The notes under the pieces are model-generated. The model searched no databases and was not told the DNA's origin. It saw nothing but the letters and a program-made list of their open reading frames with translations. A DNA stretch of 64,000 nt, from assembly GCA_021647505.1 (NCBI GenBank), contig JAKIUN010000001.1, positions 97,828 through 161,827 of the forward strand, read 5' to 3'. How positions within the stretch are numbered: the stretch's first letter is position 1; the number at the start of each line of letters is the position of its first letter. Source of the DNA: Gammaproteobacteria bacterium (GTDB taxonomy: Bacteria; Pseudomonadota; Gammaproteobacteria; SZUA-152). Of the stretch, positions 19,635 through 55,976 are shown one piece after another. The translations under genes and the position numbers were made by a program.

Positions 19635-21596
19635 TTAAATCGCCGCAGCTGCGGGCTGTTGCGGGTTATGGGCCGTCGGTAGTGGCGTATTAATTGCCTT
19701 CAGAATGTCGTTGATGGTACCCAACTGCTGCATAAGATCCTCACTCTGGGCCTCTAGCAGGGCGATATTTTCCGCAAGCTTTTCCCGTGATTTCTTTATT
19801 TTTTGCAGATTGGCGAGGCGTTTTTCCAGCTGTTGCTTGCGTTCCCTGATGCGTACCGCCAGCGGGCGCATGACCGAGCCCGCCCAGTCCTCGGCGTCCT
19901 GATTGGCGCGAAAGAAAATATTGCGCGCATGGCTCACCATCGAGACGAAGAATTTCTTTACCACGAAACTCTGCTCAGTCATGGTGGTGACGCTGCTATT
20001 GCGGAATTCTTCGGCCTTTTTGTACAGCTGATCCAGCTCGCGGGTGTACGAAGCTGTCGCAAACAAGCTGGGATTAAGGTTGGAAAAGCCGTGTTCGTCG
20101 CGGAAACGGTCATAAATGGACTGGACGATGGCGTTAGATTTTTCGGTCTGGTGGTTGACGTGAGTCATGGTGTCCCGCGCGCCGTCAAAAAAGGTTTTCA
20201 TACCGCCTTTCATGCCGAGGGTGGTCCAGCTGTCGACCATCCCGGCACGGGTTTTGGCGATCAAGTGATCCAGTGAGTCGAGCCCCAGGGATTCCACCAG
20301 GGCAATAAGCTGGCGTTTCAGCACATGGCGGCTGGTCTGGAAGTTTTCCACGTCCTTCTGATAAATATTCTGTTCCATGCGCAGTTTCTGCATGGTTTCC
20401 ATGAGCACGTCTGCGCTTTTTCCGGAGAGGGAGCGCAATTCATCCATCTGTGTCTGGATGTCATCCAGACGTTGAGTGAGCACTCCCTTGGTGCCTTCGA
20501 TCATGGCGCCGATGCGTGAGGTGATGTTGCTGCCTAGCAGCTGTTGCTTGGCGGGCAGGACTTCATTGGAGAGCGTTGCTTCCAGCGCCAGCAGGCCGCT
20601 CTTCTGCAGCAGGGCATCGTCGTTCTTGACCCGTGCCAACAATCCTTTTTGGGCGGTCACCGGGTAGACGTTTCGGCTTTCCACGCCCAGTATGTCGGCG
20701 GTATCGCTGCACTGTTTGTCGATATTGCGCTGTACGGCGGCCTCATCCTGCAATTCATCCCACAGGGTGTCTATCTTGTTCAGTACCACGATGAGTCCCG
20801 TCTGGCGATTGCCACGGAAGGTTCGTGCATGGGTATTCCAGATATCTATATCGCTCTTGGTGGCTCCGGTATCGGCTGCCAGCACAAAGATGACTGCCTG
20901 GGCGTTGGGCAACATGTCCATGGTGAGTTCAGGTTCGGTGCCTATGGCGTTGAGGCCGGGGGTGTCAAGGATCACCAGGCCCTGTTTCAGCAGGGGGTGG
21001 GGAAAGCTGATCATGACATGGCGCCACAGGGGAATTTCGATGCTGACCGGTGGCACCTCGGCCTTTTTTTGTTCTTCTCGGGTGTAGAGGCCGAGCTGAA
21101 TGGCGTTGTCAACGGGAACGGGCTTGGTCTTGATGATTTCCTGAAAGGCCTCGACCATGGCTTGTGGGGAATCGATATCGAGATCGATACTGATCCAGTG
21201 TGCGGGATCCTGCTTGAATTCGCTGATGCTGGTGTCTTCGAGGCGCGTTTCGATGGGTAGCATGCGGATGTAAGGTTTGTCCGTCTTGGCATCGTGAAAC
21301 AGTTCGGTGGGACACATGGTAGTGCGACCCGCCGAGGAGGGCAGCAGCCGTCGTTTATAATTGGCGAAGAAAATGGCGTTGATCAGCTCGGTCTTGCCAC
21401 GTGAGAACTCGGCGGCAAAACCGATGGTGATGTGGTCGGATTCCAGTGCATCAATAATTTCATAGATGCGCAAATCATCTTCCGGAGAACTCATGTCGTG
21501 TGCCGCCAGCCAGTCACGATAGGCGGTGATTTGGCGCCTGGTATTGTCCTTCCAGCGGCTATAGGCGTTGAGTTGTTGTGTGAATTGTTCCTTCAC
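19635..21596 (-). CDS. Bacterial dynamin-like GTPase
   Basis: G1 FSRGKTELINAIF; G3 ILDTPGLNAIG; G4 VLNKID. Long helical C-terminal stalk. 653 aa. Confidence 0.8.
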   Translation of the reverse strand: MKEQFTQQLNAYSRWKDNTRRQITAYRDWLAAHDMSSPEDDLRIYEIIDALESDHITIGFAAEFSRGKTELINAIFFANYKRRLLPSSAGRTTMCPTELFHDAKTDKPYIRMLPIETRLEDTSISEFKQDPAHWISIDLDIDSPQAMVEAFQEIIKTKPVPVDNAIQLGLYTREEQKKAEVPPVSIEIPLWRHVMISFPHPLLKQGLVILDTPGLNAIGTEPELTMDMLPNAQAVIFVLAADTGATKSDIDIWNTHARTFRGNRQTGLIVVLNKIDTLWDELQDEAAVQRNIDKQCSDTADILGVESRNVYPVTAQKGLLARVKNDDALLQKSGLLALEATLSNEVLPAKQQLLGSNITSRIGAMIEGTKGVLTQRLDDIQTQMDELRSLSGKSADVLMETMQKLRMEQNIYQKDVENFQTSRHVLKRQLIALVESLGLDSLDHLIAKTRAGMVDSWTTLGMKGGMKTFFDGARDTMTHVNHQTEKSNAIVQSIYDRFRDEHGFSNLNPSLFATASYTRELDQLYKKAEEFRNSSVTTMTEQSFVVKKFFVSMVSHARNIFFRANQDAEDWAGSVMRPLAVRIRERKQQLEKRLANLQKIKKSREKLAENIALLEAQSEDLMQQLGTINDILKAINTPLPTAHNPQQPAAAAI

Positions 21597-29985: not shown

Positions 29986-30624
29986 TTGGGCGGGATCATG
30001 GCAGGGAAAAATAACAGGAATCAGGGCAGACCGATGATGAAACGTGAAGTACTTGAGAAGAAACTAACGCAACTGAAGGCCAAGCAGCAGTTAATGGAGA
30101 AGGCCTGGAAAGAGGCTGGTAACCGCGAACTGATCCAGTTTTTTGTCGATATCATGCCGCGTACCCTGGATACGGAACGCTGTAGCATCTTCATTCTCGA
30201 CCCAGTGGATGAGAAAGCCTGGCTGCAATGCGGCACAGGTATGAGCGAAAAACAGCTGCAGGTTCCCACCAAGAATTCTATCGTTGGTCGCGTCATCTCC
30301 AGTGGTCAACATGTGGTGGAAACCGACCTGCAGGAACAGGTCGGTGTGCACGATGTGGTGGCGGTAAAAACCGGCTTTATCACCCGCAATGCCCTGTGCG
30401 TGCCGGTGCATGGCGTGACAACAAAAAAGATCGTCGGGGCCATCCAGGTGCTGAACAAGAACAATGGCATGTTCGATGATGAAGACCGTAAGACTCTTGA
30501 ACGCCTGGCCTTCCACCTGGAAATGAACATCGAAAATATCTACCTGCGCCAGGAGCTGGCGAAGATCTCGCTGGAAATGGGTAAGAAAATCCGGTTATTG
30601 GAAAGAAAGCTGGGGATCAAATAA
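29986..30624 (+). CDS. GAF-domain protein
   Basis: Coiled-coil N-terminus followed by a GAF-like core (ERCSIFILDPVDEKAWL...IVGRVISSGQHV...ALCVPV...GAIQVLNK). TTG 29986 or ATG 29998 as start. First gene of the low-GC island. Confidence 0.7.
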   Translation: MGGIMAGKNNRNQGRPMMKREVLEKKLTQLKAKQQLMEKAWKEAGNRELIQFFVDIMPRTLDTERCSIFILDPVDEKAWLQCGTGMSEKQLQVPTKNSIVGRVISSGQHVVETDLQEQVGVHDVVAVKTGFITRNALCVPVHGVTTKKIVGAIQVLNKNNGMFDDEDRKTLERLAFHLEMNIENIYLRQELAKISLEMGKKIRLLERKLGIK

Positions 30625-30779: not shown

Positions 30780-31778
30780 TTAATTCGCTTTCTCCTCAAA
30801 TATCTCAATATTGGCCTTGCTTCTGAGTTCTTCGATGTGTGCGGCAATCATCTGCGGTTTACGCTGGTTCTGTAAATACCGTTTGATGAAGTCCCTGACT
30901 TCTTCATAAGGTGTTTTCCCGGCTGGCCTTTTATCCATCAGCTTTGCAATGTGGTAACCAAACTGTGTCTCGAATACAGCACTGACCTCACCTTTTTTCA
31001 AAGAAAACACCACCTCGTCAAACGCTGCAGGCATGTAATCTCTCTTGATATACCCAAGATCACCATCGGCCTCAGAGCTGTCGGAGTGTTCTTTGGCAAG
31101 CTCGGCAAAGTCCGCGCCATCAACAATCATCTGTCGTAGTTCCTCGGCCTTTTGATGAATCTTCTCTTTTTCTGCGGGTGCTGTATCTTCTTCAACGCTC
31201 AATAGGATGTGGTTCAGGCGCAGGCTCTCATCCCTTTTGAAAGGCATTTGTTCATAAGCTGAACGTACCTCTTCCTCGGAGATTTGTGGAGTAACCAATC
31301 CCTGGTTTTTCAGATACTCATCCATAGTCAGCTTGCGTTTAGTGATTGCCAACATCTGCCCGGCGCTCAGGCTGTAGCTTTTCAGGTAGTCTTGAAAGCG
31401 CTCCTCGGAACCGAGCCTTGTCTGTATGGACTGTAATGTCTCTTCGGCTTTTTCATCGATGTCAGGAATATCGAGGGCCTGTGCCTGGCTTGCCTGATAC
31501 AGAAGCTCCTGTTCAATAACTTTCTTAAGCGCATTCCTCTTTGCAGTACCCGTCGAACCGGCACGTGGATTCTTGTGTTTTCGTAATTCTTTCTGAAACT
31601 CCATCGAAATTTGATACTCAAGAATCGGTGTGCCGTTGACCTTTGCCAAAATCTTTTCGGGCTTCTCCGCAAGCGTTTCCCTCTGTTCATTACATGCCGA
31701 CAAAGTGAGGGCCAGACAGGGCAAAAGCCACATCAAATAGCCTGTCATATTCTGTGTTTTCTTGCTCCATTTAGTCAA
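30780..31778 (-). CDS. Lipoprotein parvulin-type peptidyl-prolyl isomerase (SurA/PpiC-like)
   Basis: Signal peptide plus lipobox (LPCLALTLSAC). Parvulin domain RLNHILLSV...GDLGYIKRDYMPAAFDEVVF...FGYHIAKL. AAGGAG lies 6 nt upstream of TTG 31778; the track start at 31784 and ATG 31748 are alternatives. Confidence 0.85.
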   Translation of the reverse strand: MTKWSKKTQNMTGYLMWLLPCLALTLSACNEQRETLAEKPEKILAKVNGTPILEYQISMEFQKELRKHKNPRAGSTGTAKRNALKKVIEQELLYQASQAQALDIPDIDEKAEETLQSIQTRLGSEERFQDYLKSYSLSAGQMLAITKRKLTMDEYLKNQGLVTPQISEEEVRSAYEQMPFKRDESLRLNHILLSVEEDTAPAEKEKIHQKAEELRQMIVDGADFAELAKEHSDSSEADGDLGYIKRDYMPAAFDEVVFSLKKGEVSAVFETQFGYHIAKLMDKRPAGKTPYEEVRDFIKRYLQNQRKPQMIAAHIEELRSKANIEIFEEKAN

Positions 31779-31795
31779 GGTCAACTCCTTTCATT

Positions 31796-33301
31796 TTAGT
31801 TTAAGATAGTGATATCTGCGAAGGCACCGATGCTACCGAAGGGGACGAAGATAAGTTTGAAAGTGGTGCCGGTGGCATCCAGGTCGAAGGAGACCTGCTG
31901 GGGATAGTCTTCTCCGGGACTGTTGAAAATATGCACCGCCATCAAGTCCATTCTGAGGCGATCATTCTCGACAACCAAGAGGAGCACCGCATCGAGGGAG
32001 TCGTTTTCCAGGGTTATCTGATAGAAAGTATCTTCGAGGGTGGTTGTCTTCAGGCTGTCAGACCATGTTGGCTCTCTCACCAGGCTGATGGATGTGACGG
32101 AAGGGAAGGTGGTGGCTTCACTCACATCTACCAGGCCAAACCCATATTCCTCATCGCGTCCGGGTTTTCCCAGATCTATGGCGGTCATCTGCAGCTGCTG
32201 TCGCACATCCCGATTGTCTATCACCCCGTCACTGTTTACATCACCCACTCCGGCAGCCATTACCAGGGCTGCAGTGCCGGTGACATGGGCGGCGGATTGG
32301 GAGGTGCCGCTCTGTTCGATATAGCCGTTGTATTGGGCCGTGGATCGTATGCCCAGACCTGGGGCCGCCAGTTCAATGGCCGGGTCGATGGGTGTATAGA
32401 ATCCACGTTGATCCGCTGGATCAGTGCCCGTCACAGCGATGACTGAATCATAGGCGCCCGGAAAGGCAGCCGCAGCGCCAAACGTGTTTCCCGCAGCTGC
32501 AATGATCAGTACACCTGCCGCATAGGCGGCATCACAGGCTTCCTGAAGTATTTGCGAGTCGATTCCGGCAAGACTGAGATTGATGATGTCCATGTCGTTT
32601 TCCACCGCCCACTGGATACTGGCGACGATTGTGCCCAGGGTGCCAAAGCCTCCACCGTCCAATGCCTTGACCGCATAGAGTGAAACTTCGGGAGCCACAC
32701 CAACGACACCGGTACCGTTTGCTTCCGCACCGATAATGCCAGCAATGTGAGTGCCATGACTGTTCCAGCTATCGTCCATGGGGTCGTCGTCGTCATAGAT
32801 GAAGTCATAACCGCCGCGGTAATTGGCATCCAGATCTTCGTGGTTGTAATCGATGCCGGTGTCGATCACGGCGACCTTGATTTCCTTGCCGGTAATGCCC
32901 TTGTCATGCGCTACTTTGCTGTCGATATGCTGCACTCCCCAGGCATCCTGATACTCGCTATCTTCAGCAAAGCTTTCAATGGAGAAGGGCTTTTGAATCA
33001 TGGCTATGTACGGCAGTTCTATCGTTGTAACGACTTGGTCTTCCTCCACATAGGCGACAAGTGGATGTTCACGTAACTCGGCCATGGCCTGTTCCGACAA
33101 CTGCGCGACGATGGCGGGAATCAGACGATAGACACGATCAACCGTGCCGCCGGCACGCCGGATAAGCTCCTGTTCGGGCTGTCCCGGTTGCTGATGGAAT
33201 CCGATGATTACTGAATATTCCGCCGTCAAGGCTGTGGCGGAGAAGGTGATGCTCATGAAAAAGAAGGTTGCAGCAGAGATATATTTATTTTTGAAAGTCA
33301 T
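31796..33301 (-). CDS. Secreted subtilisin-family (S8) serine protease with I9 propeptide
   Basis: Signal peptide and an I9-like propeptide (YSVIIGFHQ...VAYVEEDQV). Catalytic triad contexts VAVIDTGIDYNHEDL, HGTHIAGIIG and GTSQSAAHVTG. Ca-loop-like DVNSDGVIDNRD. C-terminal beta-rich extension. Confidence 0.9.
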   Translation of the reverse strand: MTFKNKYISAATFFFMSITFSATALTAEYSVIIGFHQQPGQPEQELIRRAGGTVDRVYRLIPAIVAQLSEQAMAELREHPLVAYVEEDQVVTTIELPYIAMIQKPFSIESFAEDSEYQDAWGVQHIDSKVAHDKGITGKEIKVAVIDTGIDYNHEDLDANYRGGYDFIYDDDDPMDDSWNSHGTHIAGIIGAEANGTGVVGVAPEVSLYAVKALDGGGFGTLGTIVASIQWAVENDMDIINLSLAGIDSQILQEACDAAYAAGVLIIAAAGNTFGAAAAFPGAYDSVIAVTGTDPADQRGFYTPIDPAIELAAPGLGIRSTAQYNGYIEQSGTSQSAAHVTGTAALVMAAGVGDVNSDGVIDNRDVRQQLQMTAIDLGKPGRDEEYGFGLVDVSEATTFPSVTSISLVREPTWSDSLKTTTLEDTFYQITLENDSLDAVLLLVVENDRLRMDLMAVHIFNSPGEDYPQQVSFDLDATGTTFKLIFVPFGSIGAFADITILN

Positions 33302-33434
33302 GGTTCATCCCTGGGTTCAGGTTGTTTAAGGAGAAAAACTAATTGCAAATATTGCCCGGTTATTTGTTGATGTTTTTATGGGTCTCGTCATTCCTTTTGT
33401 GAGGGTTTTGACATCAAAAGGTCAAGGTCAAAGG

Positions 33435-33968
33435 TTATCGGCCACCCATTCCACGACCGTGACAGGCGCGGCAATTACGTTGCCAGAATGTCTCTGTCTG
33501 ATGGTGGACATTGGTGCTCCGCATGGGGCTGCCGGTAATCACATACACCGGATGGCACTGCAGGCAGTCTCTGAAGGGTTTGAGTGTGTAATGTGTCTGT
33601 GTATCATCCCAGATAAACTCGTGGCAGCTTGTGCACTCATAGGGCTCGCCGGGTATTCCGCCCGGGGCATCAGGAGCCTTTGATTGGCTTGGATCCGGAA
33701 TCGGTGTGCCGTTCAGGTGATGATGCCGGTCGGGGTTGGGCATTTGGAGTTGAGGAAACCGCTCCAGGTCTTCGTGACAATTTCGGCATTCCGCTTCGGT
33801 TGGAAATCCTGCGAATATACTCATCATTCCTCCGCCGCCCATTCCTCCGCCGCCCATCCCTCCGCCGCCCATCCCTCCGCCACCCATTCGGGCATGGCCA
33901 TCGGGCGAGTAGGCTGCGCTGACGGCAAGTAGCGATACTGCACAGAGAATCCAATTGAATTTATACAT
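33435..33968 (-). CDS. Tetrahaem c-type cytochrome with N-terminal (GGGGM)4 repeat
   Basis: Signal peptide MYKFNWILCAVSLLAVSAA. Four CxxCH motifs (CRNCH, CTSCH, CLQCH, CRACH). I prefer ATG 33968 with GGGAAG upstream, because the track extension to 34040 runs through a terminator hairpin. Confidence 0.85.
   Translation of the reverse strand: MYKFNWILCAVSLLAVSAAYSPDGHARMGGGGMGGGGMGGGGMGGGGMMSIFAGFPTEAECRNCHEDLERFPQLQMPNPDRHHHLNGTPIPDPSQSKAPDAPGGIPGEPYECTSCHEFIWDDTQTHYTLKPFRDCLQCHPVYVITGSPMRSTNVHHQTETFWQRNCRACHGRGMGGR
33825..33887 (-). repeat. Tandem 15-nt repeat x4 encoding M(GGGGM)4
   Basis: On the plus strand CCTCCGCC(G/A)CCCAT(T/C) is repeated four times head to tail. Confidence 0.9.
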
Positions 33969-34012
33969 TGTGAAGCTTCCCTTTATTTTTTTTGATGTTT
34001 GCTGCCTACATA

Positions 34013-34053
34013 AAAAAAGGGAAGGGGGCGTATTCATCAATGCCCCCTTCCCT
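34013..34053 (-). terminator. Strong intrinsic terminator/attenuator between the octahaem and tetrahaem genes
   Basis: On the minus strand: GGGAAGGGGGC - 12-nt loop - GCCCCCTTCCC (11-bp perfect stem) followed by TTTTTTT. Confidence 0.75.
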
Positions 34054-34097
34054 TGGTATTACCTCCTTTTCATGTTGACAGTCGGTCGTGCCAGTTG

Positions 34098-35588
34098 TCA
34101 GTTACACGAGACCTCTTTGGATGCGCTGCCGAAGATGCTCTCGACTTCCAGACTTCCACAGGCCGTCGTACCGCAATTGGCGACGATTTCACTGTCGCTC
34201 CATGAATCAACGGAGCATGCTGTGGTAGCGATGGTGACGCTGGTACCGGAATCGGCGGCATTCAAATAGGCGCCGAATCCACCGCCAGTAATGGTGAAGC
34301 TACTGCCATCTGCGCTCACCGTATCGATAGTCACCTGGGGCCCTACAAGCAGCGTCATAGGATTACTTATGGTATCCACCCCCTTGACGGCGCGCAGGTA
34401 GTAGTTGCCTGGGCTCAGATCTGCAGGCAGGGTCACCTCCATCTCAGACGGCGAGACGGTCTCTGGCGTCAGCTCAACCGTGGTGCCATCGAGTTCCGTC
34501 AGGCTGACTCTGGACTTCAGTACCATGGTACCCATGAAGGAGAGCACTTCATTGGTCAGGGCTTGGCCACTGACCGTAATGGTTTCCGCAGAACCGGCGG
34601 TGACACGCTGCTTACTCAGTCCCAAAATCTCCGGAACGATGGGGCCAGAGAAAGGCGCAGGCATGCCGGAGGCTGACAGGTAGCCACCATGACAGCCGTG
34701 GCAGTCCTGGGGAGAGCTGCCGACATGACCGAAGAACGGCTCTTCTCCACCGACGGTGACGACGCCATCATCATTGGAATCGAACTGGATATTGTGAATC
34801 GACTTTATGCCATGGCAGTCTTGGCAACGTCGAATTGCCCAGTCTGTGTTCATCTGGTCGTGGCAAATGGTGCAGTCGAGATCCGAAATACCGGGTTGGC
34901 CGATACCTGTGCTGTGATGGTTTATATCGTTTGTGGGTATAAAGCGTCCGGTCACATCGTCGGTACCCTCGTTATGGCAGAAGTCGCAGGCGCCCTCGCC
35001 GTTAGGCCCTTTACCGCTACTGGTGCGCGGCGTGACCAATGTCGGTGTACGACCGATGGGGATGTAGTGGCCATCACCCGGGTTATCAATGCGGGCACCG
35101 TGGCAGTGCATGCAGTTGAGCGCCTGAGCTGGTGCCGTCAGGTGGTGGACGGATGCCTGCCCCGGAATCTGCTGATGGCAGTTCAAACAGTTGGTGAAGT
35201 TGTCGACGATTTCGAAATACCCGACGTCTTCGTTGTACTCAACGATATGGCAATCGAGGCATTGATAGTTTTCGCCCGGTACGCCGAACGGGGAATCCGT
35301 GGGATCCTGAATGACGGTTCCTACCCGAAAATGGTGGCGGTCGGTGATGACTCCCGGTTTGACTTCCGGCGGCGCAAAAGTCCAGCCAATGTCATCCAGG
35401 TCATCCGGGGTCAAGCGGACGGGGATATGGCAATACCAGCAGTTTTCCCTCACCAGGTCGTTGAATACCCCATCCGGAATGCCGATGTTTTGATTTACCG
35501 GGGGGGCCGGTACGTTTGCCAGGGTTGTCGCACTCATTCCTCCTGCCACGATGAGTGCGCATAGTTGGAGTAGCAGTCGCTTAAACAT
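34098..35588 (-). CDS. Octahaem c-type cytochrome with C-terminal IPT/TIG-like Ig-fold repeats
   Basis: Signal peptide MFKRLLLQLCALIVAGGMSATTLA. Eight CxxCH motifs (CWYCH, CLDCH, CLNCH, CMHCH, CDFCH, CTICH, CQDCH, CHGCH) within about 300 aa, plus 9 further His. The C-terminal ~190 aa carry ETITVSGQALTNE, SSFTITGGGFGAY and SWSDSEIV (IPT/TIG-like). AAGGGAGG SD 8 nt upstream. Confidence 0.9.
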   Translation of the reverse strand: MFKRLLLQLCALIVAGGMSATTLANVPAPPVNQNIGIPDGVFNDLVRENCWYCHIPVRLTPDDLDDIGWTFAPPEVKPGVITDRHHFRVGTVIQDPTDSPFGVPGENYQCLDCHIVEYNEDVGYFEIVDNFTNCLNCHQQIPGQASVHHLTAPAQALNCMHCHGARIDNPGDGHYIPIGRTPTLVTPRTSSGKGPNGEGACDFCHNEGTDDVTGRFIPTNDINHHSTGIGQPGISDLDCTICHDQMNTDWAIRRCQDCHGIKSIHNIQFDSNDDGVVTVGGEEPFFGHVGSSPQDCHGCHGGYLSASGMPAPFSGPIVPEILGLSKQRVTAGSAETITVSGQALTNEVLSFMGTMVLKSRVSLTELDGTTVELTPETVSPSEMEVTLPADLSPGNYYLRAVKGVDTISNPMTLLVGPQVTIDTVSADGSSFTITGGGFGAYLNAADSGTSVTIATTACSVDSWSDSEIVANCGTTACGSLEVESIFGSASKEVSCN

Positions 35589-36276
35589 GATCAGTACCTC
35601 CCTTTATCAATCTTACTTTAGCGTTAGCGGTTTTCATGGTCTTTCTTTCCTCACTAGAATCACATTGGTTTGATTTGATTACGTATTACTCGATGTCGCC
35701 ATGCCGTACTGAAGATATGTACTGATTGCACATTTCACGCCATTTTTAATTTTTCCTTTTATGTCAGTCATATATGTCTGGTTATGCTGAGGAGGGCTGT
35801 TCTGAGCACTTAAATGTGTCTCTATATAAATACACCTGTAAGTCATTGGTTTATCATAACGCATTGAAAAATATACAAATGATAATGTCTTTGATTGGCG
35901 ACACCTGCTGAAGAATGATGTACGAGTGGGGGTGATGACTGATACAGGAGTGTGTTAACCAGATGATCATACAGTCGGGAGGTTACAGGCAATATACGGG
36001 GCGGGGGAAAGCGGTGTACAGGCAAGGGGTATGCCTAACTTGGAATGGTGTAAGTTATGCCGAGAATGGGTGCGAGGTAAGCTCAGCTTATGATTGGCAG
36101 GGGATATTTGCGAGCAATATAGGGAATATTTCTGGTTGATTTATCACCCTGACCCATGGCGGAATGACGGGCAAAAATGATTGTTAACACCCTTTAGAGA
36201 CTTTTTTAGGACAGAAGCGATGATAATGATCAGTTTGGGGTGTCCCAAATAAATCGCAGCCCTCTATCGAAACTCT
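35589..36276. other. AT-rich ~690-bp non-coding region (promoter/regulatory head of the cytochrome operon)
   Basis: Only two short ORFs (61 and 60 aa) with implausible composition. Visibly AT-rich compared with the flanks. It is the longest non-coding stretch in the window. Confidence 0.6.
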
Positions 36277-37320
36277 TTACAGATACCATTCTTCAGGCAT
36301 CTCGCAGGAAGGCATGGGCGCAACCTGTTCGCGCCGGGCTTCACTGCCTTTGGGCGTGATCTCCACTTCCACCTGTTCGGCATCACGACCTTTGCTGAAG
36401 CGCGCGGCGATGCGTGCAGCGAGGGCGATATCGTCCGCACCGGGTTGGCCGTCAAGCAGTACCAGCGGGCCGGGATGGCTGAGAGTGCGAATATGGGTGA
36501 ATTGCTTACGGTAGCCCTCAAGGAAATTGTTTTCTCCTTCTTCGCGACCGATGATAAGCTTGAAATTCGGCCGTGGGCGCAGGTGACGTCCCACCTTGAG
36601 CAGCATGATGTCGTCGATTTCGTACTGACGTTCGCCGCGTGCATTCCACAGGTCGGCGAGCTTGTGCGAATAGGCCTCGTCGGTGAGGAAGCAGCAGCCA
36701 CCGGAGGGCTGGGCATAGTCTTCGATGCCCATCTCACGGGCCAGGGCTATCTGTGGTTTGCGGCCACGGCCGGAAAATCCGTACAGGTGTTCGCGGTCGA
36801 TCCAGCCCTCGCGTTCAGGCAGGGTCTCGGGCAGGTTCTTGCCACACAGGGGGCGTAGCAGGCGGTCTTCGGCACCGGATTCACGCTGGATCACGGGCAT
36901 GGTGTCACGGCGCTGGGACATGGGCCGCTGACCGACCACCTCGCCGGTGATAATGAAGTCGAAATCATGTTCCTTGATCCACTCGTGGGCCTTGCGCACC
37001 ATGAAACACTTGCAGTCCAGGCAGGGGTTCATGTTCGAACCGTAACCATGCTTGGGGTTGATGACCACGTCCTTGTATTCGTCGATGACATCGACGATGT
37101 GCAACTTGATGCCGAGAGTCTCGGCGACCCACAGGGCGTTGTTACGCTTGGGTTTGGCGCGATCTTTCTTGCGGATGGCGTGGGTATGGCCCTCGACGCA
37201 GAAGCCGGTGAAGAAATTGACCCCCTCGACGTGGATGCCCTGATCCATGATCACGCGGGTGGCGAGCATGGAATCGAGTCCACCGGAAATGAGGGAGAGG
37301 GCCTTGCGCTGTCTGGACAT
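36277..37320 (-). CDS. PP-loop ATPase superfamily protein (ThiI/MnmA-like tRNA sulfurtransferase family)
   Basis: PP-loop LISGGLDSMLA. NPCLDCKCFMVRKA...ITGEVVGQRPMSQRRD resembles the thiolase family. Exact subfamily not resolved. Confidence 0.7.
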   Translation of the reverse strand: MSRQRKALSLISGGLDSMLATRVIMDQGIHVEGVNFFTGFCVEGHTHAIRKKDRAKPKRNNALWVAETLGIKLHIVDVIDEYKDVVINPKHGYGSNMNPCLDCKCFMVRKAHEWIKEHDFDFIITGEVVGQRPMSQRRDTMPVIQRESGAEDRLLRPLCGKNLPETLPEREGWIDREHLYGFSGRGRKPQIALAREMGIEDYAQPSGGCCFLTDEAYSHKLADLWNARGERQYEIDDIMLLKVGRHLRPRPNFKLIIGREEGENNFLEGYRKQFTHIRTLSHPGPLVLLDGQPGADDIALAARIAARFSKGRDAEQVEVEITPKGSEARREQVAPMPSCEMPEEWYL

Positions 37321-54425: not shown

Positions 54426-54797
54426 GACAAACTCCCTGCCGTTCAAATAATTCGGATCTTTTTGTGCGCTTTCCCGCAAAGAAAAACTGCCGTAGCCACA
54501 ACACTATTCTTTCCAGAGTGCCTGCGCAGTAAGAAAGAGTATTAACACAACCAGCGGGGAGCTGTTCAATAAATCTGCACAAAAAACAAAATGATTTTCT
54601 ACGCCAAGAGAAATGTCCTCCACATTTGTTATGCAGTATGCGGAAGATATACAGGAAAAACAGCAAAAATATGAGAAAACACCCTTTTTCCGCATTGACT
54701 TGCGCATATTGAAAGGGGTAGGTTTACAGCGATAAACAGTAAGCAGCACTCATTGGCAACGCTTGTTTATGCGCTTGACGAAGGGAGACAGTCGATT

Positions 54798-55976
54798 ATG
54801 AGGATTGTCCTGATTGGTGCGCCAGGATCTGGCAAAGGCACCCAGGCCAAGAAACTGGTCAGCCGCTACGGGGTACCACAGATTTCCACTGGCGACCTGC
54901 TGCGCGCCGCCGTCGCCGCAGAAACACCCCTCGGCCTGCAAGCCAAGGCCGCCATGGATGCAGGGCAACTGGTCTCGGATCAGATCGTACTCGACATGAT
55001 CGAAGAACGCATGGCTGAGCCCGACACAGAAAAAGGCTTCATCCTCGACGGCTTCCCACGCAACATCCCACAAGCTCAGGCACTCGATGCCATGCTGGAT
55101 AAGCTGGGACGCCCGTTGAAAACCGCCATCCTCATCGACGTGGACTTCGACCTGCTGATCCAACGCATCGCCGGCCGTCGCACCTGCTGTAGTTGTGGAC
55201 AGATGTACAACATCTACACCTCTCCGCCGAAAATGGATGGCCTGTGTGATGTCTGTGGCGGCAAGTTGCACCATAGAGCCGACGACAATGAAGACACCAT
55301 CACCAATCGCCTACGCGTTTACGAGGCGCAGACCGCACCACTGATCAACTATTACAAGGCTCAGGGCAAGCGGTATATCGTCGATGGTACGGGCACGCTC
55401 GATGAAATTTTCCAGCGTCTGTGCAATATCATCGATGGATTACCCACCCACGAAAGTCTGGAATCTGCCAGAAAGGCCGCCAGATTTGAACAAACTATTC
55501 AAGAAATGGTGGAAAAGGCCGAAGCCAAGCCCACCCCAGATACGCAAACAACTCCAGTCGCCAAAAAGGAAACCCGGATCATGACGGCAAAAAAGAGAAC
55601 AGCAACGAGCAAGAAGGCGGCGAGCAAAAAATCAGCCGCAAAGAAAAAGATCGCCAAGAAAACCGCCACAAAAAAGAAAGTGGCCAACAAGAAAAAGACT
55701 GTAAAAAAGAAGGTTGCCGTTAAAAAAGCTGTCGCCAAAAAGAAAAAAGCCGCTGTAAAGAAATCGATGAAAAAGAAGGTGGCGACCAAGAAAAAGACGG
55801 CAAAAAAGAAGGTAGCTAAGAAAAAGGTAGCCAAGAAGAAGGTCGCTACCAAGAAAGTATCACCGAAGAAGAAATCTGCAAAGAAAAAGGCCGCCGGAAA
55901 GACGCCTGCGAAGAAGAAGGCCCCGGTCAAGAAGAAAGGGGCAAAGAAGAAGGCCGCAGCCAGAAAAAAGCGCTGA
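54798..55976 (+). CDS. adk: Adenylate kinase fused to a ~175-aa Lys/Ala-rich histone-H1-like tail
   Basis: AAGGGAGA SD before ATG 54798. MRIVLIGAPGSGKGTQA P-loop. Cys4 LID (CCSCGQ...CDVCGG). The Adk fold ends near residue 215. The same frame then continues without a stop through (A/V)KKK repeats to 55976. Confidence 0.85.
   Translation: MRIVLIGAPGSGKGTQAKKLVSRYGVPQISTGDLLRAAVAAETPLGLQAKAAMDAGQLVSDQIVLDMIEERMAEPDTEKGFILDGFPRNIPQAQALDAMLDKLGRPLKTAILIDVDFDLLIQRIAGRRTCCSCGQMYNIYTSPPKMDGLCDVCGGKLHHRADDNEDTITNRLRVYEAQTAPLINYYKAQGKRYIVDGTGTLDEIFQRLCNIIDGLPTHESLESARKAARFEQTIQEMVEKAEAKPTPDTQTTPVAKKETRIMTAKKRTATSKKAASKKSAAKKKIAKKTATKKKVANKKKTVKKKVAVKKAVAKKKKAAVKKSMKKKVATKKKTAKKKVAKKKVAKKKVATKKVSPKKKSAKKKAAGKTPAKKKAPVKKKGAKKKAAARKKR

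Follow-up and report, generated by a model that had tools for sequence, protein, structure and literature searches.

A probable orthologue of the Geobacter omcZ nanowire-biogenesis operon, with a tetrahaem partner gene, in a hydrothermal-vent gammaproteobacterium

Does a gene for an octahaem cytochrome that stands beside genes for a subtilase and a peptidyl-prolyl isomerase (PPIase), in the chromosome of an uncultured hydrothermal-vent gammaproteobacterium, belong to the system that builds OmcZ nanowires? Of the cytochrome nanowires known, OmcZ conducts best, and most work on its three-gene assembly module has been done in Geobacter and in archaea that oxidise methane. The question is raised by a stretch of DNA of 64,000 nucleotides (nt), hereafter the window (assembly GCA_021647505.1, contig JAKIUN010000001.1, positions 97,828 to 161,827), in which positions 30780..35588 hold four co-oriented open reading frames (ORFs), all on the minus strand and located as in an initial annotation of this DNA. 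From upstream to downstream they encode a pro-form octahaem c-type cytochrome of 496 amino acids (aa; 34098..35588), a tetrahaem c-type cytochrome of 177 aa (33435..33968), an S8 subtilase of 501 aa (31796..33301) and a PpiC/parvulin-type PPIase of 334 aa (30780..31784). The tetrahaem and S8 genes lie 133 nt apart, 11 nt separate the S8 stop codon from the isomerase gene, and all four products carry Sec or lipoprotein signals in their sequences. The two cytochrome genes are the only ORFs in the window with at least two CxxCH motifs. We consider it probable, at roughly 0.7, that this cassette and the Geobacter omcZ-ozpA-prolyl-isomerase operon for nanowire biogenesis are orthologous.

The octahaem cytochrome, its protease and its isomerase

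The octahaem protein has CxxCH motifs at residues 50, 110, 134, 159, 201, 239, 255 and 296, and is divided into a signal peptide (residues ~1-25), a haem domain (~26-311) and a tandem immunoglobulin (Ig)-like tail (~320-496); the initial description of a Sec-exported protein with eight motifs in about 300 aa is therefore correct, as they all lie between residues 50 and 300. When searched with phmmer against all chains in the PDB, the protein matched G. sulfurreducens OmcZ (8D9M) with E=2.6e-55 over query residues 8-490, and the filament-form chain 7LQ5 with E=5e-29. Each part also matches separately, the haem domain with 34% identity (E=5e-38) and the tail with 37% identity to the OmcZ tail (E=3e-19). 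By these comparisons, whose statistics lie far beyond chance, the protein is a full-length homologue of G. sulfurreducens OmcZ, tail included. The initial annotation had treated the parallel as architectural, that is, as an analogous set with a different removable tail; the relationship is one of true homology, and it extends to the tail. No similarity to OmcS or OmcE was found with phmmer or Foldseek against the PDB, and the protein matched no Pfam or NCBIfam model naming OmcZ.

The haem ligands point in the same direction. The protein contains 19 histidines, of which 11 (not nine, as first counted) lie beyond the CxxCH motifs. In two family alignments, one of 26 sequences including G. sulfurreducens OmcZ and one of 99 sequences without it, all eight CxxCH motifs and H85, H86, H148, H149, H224, H265 and H288 are invariant, and H225 is conserved in at least 90% of the members. 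The eight motif histidines and the eight conserved distal histidines together make up the sixteen axial ligands that eight bis-His haems would need, and we presume that all eight haems are ligated in this way within one subunit; eight bis-His haems are present in the cryo-electron microscopy structure of OmcZ (PMC9473688). An N-terminal motif, VPxPPVNQ-IG, is also conserved in the family (pattern P[PA]PPVNQx[LIM]G) and reads VPAPPVNQNIG in the octahaem protein. An AlphaFold model computed from the 99-sequence alignment reached a predicted local distance difference test score (pLDDT) of 89.2 and a predicted template-modelling (TM) score of 0.86. In a Foldseek search of the PDB its top match, and its sole cytochrome match, was 8D9M (E=2e-10, target-normalised TM-score 0.59), the other top matches being tandem IPT/Ig proteins (plexin and MET IPT tandems) that correspond to the tail. 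As the model was built without haems and deviates from 8D9M by a root-mean-square distance of 7.1 A, it supports the fold and not the detail.

The tail (residues 320-496; 34101..34631, minus strand) is presumed to be a removable pro-domain. It gives a Pfam TIG match at residues 424-479 (E=6.5e-7) and forms two beta-sandwich domains in the model (~320-416 and ~420-493), which agrees with the two IPT/TIG-like repeats first noticed by eye; it has no anchor and ends in ...EVSCN. In G. sulfurreducens, the OmcZ precursor (GSU2076) measures about 50 kDa, and the protease OzpA (GSU2075) cuts it after FGNSS to give the 30-kDa form that polymerises into filaments (PMC9473688; PMC12307469). The corresponding predicted nanowire-subunit domain in the window comprises residues 26-311 (34656..35513, minus strand) and aligns with G. 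sulfurreducens OmcZ residues 27-284, the part visible in the filament (PMC9473688). Its computed mass is about 31 kDa for the protein and about 36 kDa with eight haems, and it is rich in proline (24 of 286 aa). Between haem VIII and the first Ig domain lies a linker, S305-P319, SASGMPAPFSGPIVP (34632..34676, minus strand), with the family consensus APxSGPxxPxI and an invariant P319. This linker aligns with the FGNSS/PYTNATVP cleavage site of G. sulfurreducens, and a subtilase cleavage site is predicted near A311/P312.

The second haem motif and the region after the first depart from the G. sulfurreducens protein. Residues 110-114 form a canonical CLDCH where G. sulfurreducens has CX14CH. Because C110 is invariant across the 99 sequences, and almost all non-Geobacter members carry a canonical motif at this place, the CX14CH loop does not define the family. 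In addition, the alignment reveals an insertion of 21-27 aa after haem I in the window clade.

The subtilase gave Pfam matches to Peptidase_S8 (9.7e-53) and Inhibitor_I9 (1.1e-5), has a signal peptide, and retains an intact D147/H182/S334 triad by alignment to subtilisin E; its top PDB match is pro-subtilisin E (3whi, 1.2e-59). A secreted S8 protease with an I9 propeptide and a complete triad, as initially described, is thus well founded. Its C-terminal extension of about 100 aa is specific to the group, and ordinary subtilisins lack it. The proteases of omcZ clusters at ten Geobacteraceae loci are 41-46% identical to the window S8, eight of them aligning over residues 5-499, extension included, at 41-43%, and the other two reaching residue ~427 at 46%. 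We assign the window protein to the OzpA-type subtilases and predict that it cleaves pro-OmcZ. The isomerase likewise proved to be the lipoprotein parvulin first proposed: it matches Pfam Rotamase (2e-26) and the SurA-like N-domain SurA_N_3 (4.5e-7), carries an L-S-A-C lipobox, and is 28-33% identical to the Geobacteraceae copies over the full length. Because the GSU2075 locus was not in the set compared, the orthology of both proteins is judged from Geobacteraceae relatives with an OmcZ 53-60% identical to that of G. sulfurreducens; a scan with G. sulfurreducens OmcZ peptide patterns gave as its best matches metagenome-assembled genomes (MAGs) of Geobacter and Geobacteraceae at 59-60%, and did not return G. 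sulfurreducens itself.

Conservation and spread of the cassette

To place the cassette among its relatives, loci were fetched by a family motif from species-representative genomes and assemblies and then searched by tblastn with the four window proteins. This yielded 89 non-redundant loci with an omcZ homologue, of which 60 were testable, with at least 4 kb of downstream sequence. The S8 gene adjoins omcZ in 45 of these, and ppiC follows S8 in 43; two loci have S8 only, three PpiC only and 12 neither, most of the last being extra paralogues in genomes that hold the full cluster on another contig. The omcZ-S8-ppiC order spans Gammaproteobacteria, Campylobacterales, Desulfobulbia, Desulfuromonadales, Nitrospirota, Myxococcota and others. 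At the ten Geobacteraceae/Desulfuromonadales loci with an OmcZ 53-60% identical to that of G. sulfurreducens, among them the cultured Pelotalea chapellei DSM 13688, S8 directly follows omcZ in every case and ppiC is also present in nine. Co-conservation of these genes in relatives, which the initial annotation had put forward as a check, is therefore found in 43 of the 60 loci, and its proposal of a precursor, subtilase and foldase set equivalent to OmcZ/OzpA is supported by full-length homology, by the sole cytochrome fold match and by the conserved order.

The resemblance to the G. sulfurreducens operon is extensive: a full-length octahaem precursor with a signal peptide and an N-terminus of the VPPPPVNQ kind, in which the eight haem sites and eight distal histidines follow one order, the linker and the tandem Ig tail, followed downstream by an S8 protease with an I9 propeptide and C-terminal extension and then by a PpiC-type isomerase. 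In contrast to the Geobacter operon, the window protein is only 34-38% identical to its counterpart, with CLDCH and the insertion after haem I; a tetrahaem gene intervenes between omcZ and the protease, a strong terminator follows omcZ, and the host is a vent gammaproteobacterium rather than a metal-reducing member of the Desulfuromonadales. The OmcZ-peptidase-isomerase clusters of 'Ca. Methanoperedens', Borgs and the methane-oxidising archaea ANME-2 are similar cases, being also outside Geobacter and recognised by homology and cluster conservation (10.1101/2023.08.01.549754; PMC9012536), and their protease, like the window S8, finds its best model in pro-subtilisin E 3whi. These clusters differ in belonging to archaeal hosts or extrachromosomal elements, in some having extra beta-rich domains or adjoining giant multihaem cytochromes, and in that no tetrahaem partner resembling half of OmcZ has been described for them. 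OmcS and OmcE filaments are analogous in function, as polymerised multihaem cytochromes for long-range electron transfer, but are unrelated in sequence, fold and haem packing, and have inter-subunit His ligation and no subtilase processing (PMC9473688).

The kind of system is already known, and the cassette adds one member with modest variation, namely the tetrahaem accessory. The novelty implied by the initial annotation was overstated, since omcZ/ozpA operons have been described as widespread (PMC9473688) and the PPIase belongs to the published Geobacter operon (10.1101/2023.08.01.549754; 10.64898/2026.07.18.739370). What is added is the placement of an intact module in vent lineages whose labels belong to sulfur-oxidiser groups (Sedimenticola, Thiolapillus, Chromatiales and Campylobacterales). 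In the literature searched, which did not include the homologue survey of Gu et al. 2023, OmcZ was never paired with Sedimenticola, Thiodiazotropha or Thiolapillus; those OmcZ papers in which sulfur oxidisers or hydrothermal settings come up deal with other organisms. Public annotation names close homologues only as 'hypothetical protein' or 'IPT/TIG domain-containing protein', an annotation gap that deserves to be flagged. The family also provides natural OmcZ variants with a canonical haem II, a form otherwise engineered for heterologous expression.

The OmcZ family is evidently large by profile search, with 332 clusters (50% identity) at E<=1e-30 and 1030 at E<=1e-10 among 1.84 billion representative proteins. 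Named relatives of the window organism's cassette include vent Gammaproteobacteria, Chromatiales, Ectothiorhodospiraceae, Polarisedimenticolaceae, Sedimenticola and Thiolapillus, and a search with the tetrahaem protein led to a sister contig (GCA_054043645.1) whose genes stand in the same order, with 97-100% identity for the cassette proteins and 89-100% for the flanking ones. Outside the window clade, the closest OmcZ proteins are those of Campylobacterales (50-59%) and not those of other Gammaproteobacteria (32-42%). The G+C content (GC) of the cassette is 0.527 as against 0.577 for the rest of the window, GC at third codon positions (GC3) is 0.53-0.65 compared with 0.69-0.77 in neighbouring genes, and the genomic context differs in Sedimenticola and in Thiolapillus, where other genes flank the cassette. 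The Campylobacterales-nearest OmcZ, the low cassette GC and the differing Thiolapillus context suggest that the cassette has spread horizontally among vent bacteria. Which way any transfer went is ambiguous, since the omcZ genes of Campylobacterales exceed their own loci in GC. A mobile-element signature was considered and rejected: no tRNA, integrase, or flanking direct or inverted repeats were found around the cassette, and the GC shift is modest.

Several loci depart from a single omcZ gene with its own protease. Two to several paralogues occur at one locus in Campylobacterales, Nitrospirota, Gammaproteobacteria and a Deltaproteobacteria-labelled MAG; three tandem copies precede one S8-ppiC pair at L024 (8001..14114) and L046 (199..4701), S8 lies between omcZ copies at L060, the copies at L045 have no S8, and several MAGs carry extra copies on other contigs without the protease. 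OmcZ-like genes accompanied by PpiC and lacking S8 were seen at L011 (5708..13771 of a 2.6-Mb contig; OmcZ-like protein P0099), L073 and L075 (Planctomycetota/Pirellulaceae), which may represent a different, protease-independent arrangement; L011 also encodes a 715-aa protein in which a multihaem cytochrome is joined to a cytochrome-b (Ni_hydr_CYTB) domain. The C-termini vary as well. In a family alignment (A1, columns ~900-1030), P0034, P0039, P0045, P0050, P0101, P0030 and P0095 have special C-termini or extra domains, some resembling anchors or sorting signals (a hydrophobic transmembrane segment followed by an RRR run, or an ending in ...WWSIWSWWSSWSWSRR) and others adding PKD, dockerin or Ig domains; the window protein shows neither feature. 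The tails that resemble anchors or sorting signals suggest that some OmcZ precursors are tethered before cleavage.

Expression, proposed mechanism and rival explanations

Upstream of the omcZ homologue lies a conserved 5' leader (35589..35930, minus strand), defined by alignment with three relatives: about 330 nt are conserved, the final 70 nt are nearly invariant, and a GGGAGG ribosome-binding site is included. An 18-codon upstream ORF, MKTANAKVRLIKGGTDHV (35581..35637, minus strand), has its own Shine-Dalgarno sequence and overlaps the omcZ start codon by 8 nt; its peptide varies although the surrounding ~70 nt are nearly invariant in four relatives. A riboswitch or other RNA family in the leader was rejected, as no Rfam family reached the gathering threshold in the window and only a spurious snoRNA match (E=0.17) turned up. 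A candidate sigma-54 promoter ~430 nt upstream of omcZ was also dropped, having three mismatches and no conservation; matches to the sigma-54 pattern occur in the window at chance level (44 found, 45.8 expected). Downstream, an intrinsic-terminator-like hairpin (34010..34053, minus strand) begins 44 nt past the omcZ stop codon, with a perfect 13-bp stem, a 12-nt loop and a U7 tract. Its fold energy is -32.1 kcal/mol (z=-5.05, with none of 200 shuffles as good), and it is kept in five relatives, one of which (L001) has G-U-compatible substitutions. A pattern scanner missed it because the 12-nt loop exceeds the scanner's limit of 8 nt. From this hairpin, we infer that omcZ is expressed well above the accessory genes.

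A mechanism can be proposed. The three-gene operon suffices for nanowires in Shewanella (10.64898/2026.07.18.739370), the isomerase is required for OmcZ nanowires (10.64898/2026.07.18.739370; 10.1101/2023.08.01.549754), and about 20% of OmcZ prolines are cis (10.64898/2026.07.18.739370). In the vent organism, omcZ would be transcribed from the conserved upstream region, and the hairpin would pass only some transcripts on to the tetrahaem, S8 and ppiC genes, such that the structural subunit would outnumber its helpers. After Sec export, the two cytochromes would gain eight and four haems in the periplasm, where the lipoprotein PPIase, to judge from the Geobacter and Shewanella work, may aid folding of the proline-rich haem domain. 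The subtilase would activate itself by removing its own I9 propeptide and would then cut pro-OmcZ in the AP-x-SGP linker near A311/P312, the position indicated by alignment with the FGNSS site, freeing the assembly-blocking Ig tail. The bis-His octahaem unit of about 36 kDa could then self-assemble extracellularly into a conductive filament, which might bridge the gap from cell to mineral, partner cell or conductive vent sulfide.

Several points weigh against this reading. For the vent organism, processing, secretion route and polymerisation are all extrapolated, and we infer export, filament formation, participation in extracellular electron transfer and the way in which electrons flow. The 64-kb window encodes no conduit through the outer membrane, no quinol oxidoreductase of the inner membrane and no further cytochrome, and what cytochrome filaments do physiologically is in dispute (PMC11077965). 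Furthermore, the CX14CH loop, part of the subunit interface in G. sulfurreducens (PMC9473688), is absent here, and together with the insertion after haem I its absence makes an identical assembly interface impossible. This loss is not disqualifying, since wires of unchanged fold are still made by an engineered Geobacter OmcZ that has CxxCH in place of the loop (10.64898/2026.07.18.739370).

The same structural differences could be read as signs of a monomeric or loosely matrix-bound cytochrome, extracellular or at the cell surface, that never forms a long polymer. Whether processed or not, the protein would then work as a terminal reductase, a terminal oxidase or an electron 'sponge', and its Ig tail would serve for attachment and not only as an assembly inhibitor. 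Many homologues do carry extra Ig, PKD or dockerin domains or anchor-like tails (a transmembrane segment with RRR, or WSWSRR), which suggests that the tail can have a positive function, and omcZ paralogues stand without an adjacent protease at 12 of the 60 loci. The tail of the window protein, however, has no anchor, the protease and the linker motif are both conserved in the window cassette, most of the protease-less paralogues occur in genomes with a full cluster elsewhere, and the engineered protein demonstrates that wires can be made without the loop. We regard this explanation as unlikely, although it deserves to be kept in mind beside the nanowire operon.

The two remaining explanations are weaker still. 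If the octahaem protein were a periplasmic multihaem enzyme, of the octahaem tetrathionate or nitrite reductase or hydroxylamine oxidoreductase type, its neighbours would be unrelated to it; they are instead co-conserved across phyla, and the eight conserved distal histidines for eight haems leave no open catalytic site. Weak, sub-threshold matches to NrfB- and QrcA-like models (E=0.004-0.04) are the signals in its favour, but neither PDB sequences nor Foldseek gave a match to any enzyme family. No match to an octahaem reductase, whose haem packing the initial annotation had named as evidence against its reading, appeared; the only cytochrome matched was OmcZ, and we consider the enzyme explanation effectively refuted. 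A horizontally acquired island, poorly integrated or decaying and with little current function, would account for the low GC and GC3, the varying context, the Campylobacterales-nearest OmcZ and the deletion of most of the tetrahaem gene in one close lineage. Nevertheless, all four ORFs are intact with their catalytic and ligand residues preserved, the cluster recurs at 86-99% protein identity across several vent metagenomes and MAGs with leader and terminator conserved, and no flanking repeats, integrase or tRNA are present, so that a decaying island appears very improbable. An operon for OmcZ nanowires remains the reading that we prefer.

The tetrahaem protein and the surrounding window

What the additional cytochrome gene contributes is a separate question. 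Its product contains four CxxCH motifs, a signal peptide, MYKFNWILCAVSLLAVSAAYS, and Gly/Met-rich tails at both ends. The initial annotation was right to call it a four-haem paralogue; as the listed start of its ORF, TTG 34040, falls inside the terminator hairpin, we move the start to ATG 33968. Compared by BLASTP with OmcZ residues 83-164, the protein is 38% identical (E=5e-14), and the two regions have a common HH...CxxCH...CxxCH...HH...CxxCH pattern; by this similarity it is a paralogue of the OmcZ region that carries haem motifs I-IV, a 'half-OmcZ'. Weak Pfam matches to Cytochrom_c3_2 and C7 were also obtained. The AlphaFold model (pLDDT 51) was too poor for a fold search, and the only PDB sequences that the protein matched were artificial (G4S)n linkers, which align with a (G4M)n repeat. 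This repeat, a 15-nt tandem unit encoding (GGGGM)n after the signal peptide (33825..33899, minus strand), is present in 4.3 copies with 94% matches according to Tandem Repeats Finder, and its copy number differs between relatives. None of the 54 detectable homologues of the protein has a functional name, and Gly/Met-rich tails are common to the members.

A separate tetrahaem-like gene occurs near omcZ in 22 of the 60 testable loci, and its position varies: in the window clade it lies between omcZ and S8, in Desulfobulbia it follows ppiC, and it is upstream in other Gammaproteobacteria (same strand) and in Campylobacterales (opposite strand). None was found at the ten Geobacteraceae/Desulfuromonadales loci. 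In the HyVt-441 vent lineage, whose OmcZ is 96% identical, a clean deletion of ~425 bp takes out most of the gene: its ribosome-binding site and roughly three quarters of it from the start are lost, and just the final 47 codons are left (L001/L016 2257..2649, L012 11491..11880 and L013 2188..2577). On this genomic evidence the tetrahaem protein is a recurrent but dispensable accessory.

Its most probable role is that of a small, soluble carrier of electrons for the OmcZ system. According to PMC10954620, PpcA-E charge OmcS nanowires, and the tetrahaem protein resembles PpcA-E and other cytochrome c7/c3 carriers in being a small, Sec-exported, bis-His multihaem protein. It differs from PpcA-E in being a paralogue of the N-terminal half of OmcZ, not a c7 cytochrome, and in its Gly/Met-rich tails. 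A bolder proposal, about which we are considerably more doubtful, is that the protein is a dedicated adaptor for OmcZ wires through which sulfur-oxidising Gammaproteobacteria and Campylobacterota of vents would pass electrons to and from conductive sulfide minerals or partner cells. Because it corresponds to haem motifs I-IV of OmcZ, it could dock on the filament end as a pseudo-subunit and, if so, would charge, nucleate or cap the wire. Were this true, the wires might act as an electrical 'snorkel' to a distant oxidant or take up electrons for autotrophy, and the role of OmcZ in sulfur-oxidisers would reach past the metal-reducer and ANME contexts discussed so far. In any case, this recurrent, uncharacterised partner could be studied in the Shewanella system already used to express OmcZ.

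The rest of the window is occupied by housekeeping genes, including trkAH, an NtrC-type two-component system, rsmB, fmt, dprA, pilT/pilU, folB/folK, a phosphofructokinase (PFK)-family gene, adk and a PHO4-type transporter gene. Directly upstream of the cassette (36277..37320, minus strand), a PP-loop (ThiI/MnmA-like) domain is fused to an NFACT-R_2 RNA-binding domain; this gene adjoins the cassette in the closest relatives and elsewhere lies outside the cluster. On the other side, convergent with ppiC, is a gene for a stand-alone GAF-domain protein (29986..30624, plus strand), which adjoins the cassette in the closest relatives (L001, L012 and L102), is absent in Thiolapillus and Sedimenticola, and could be a local regulator or a mere neighbour. 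The product of the adenylate kinase gene (54753..55976, plus strand) joins an ADK domain (residues 20-205) to a histone-H1-like C-terminal tail of about 170 aa, rich in Lys and Ala and with KKKVAKKK repeats; AT skew peaks there (0.268 at 54-56 kb), and tandem repeats of 15 and 30 nt fall at the same place (55788..55859). Finally, a bacterial dynamin-family protein of 653 aa is encoded amid the housekeeping genes at 19635..21596 (minus strand).

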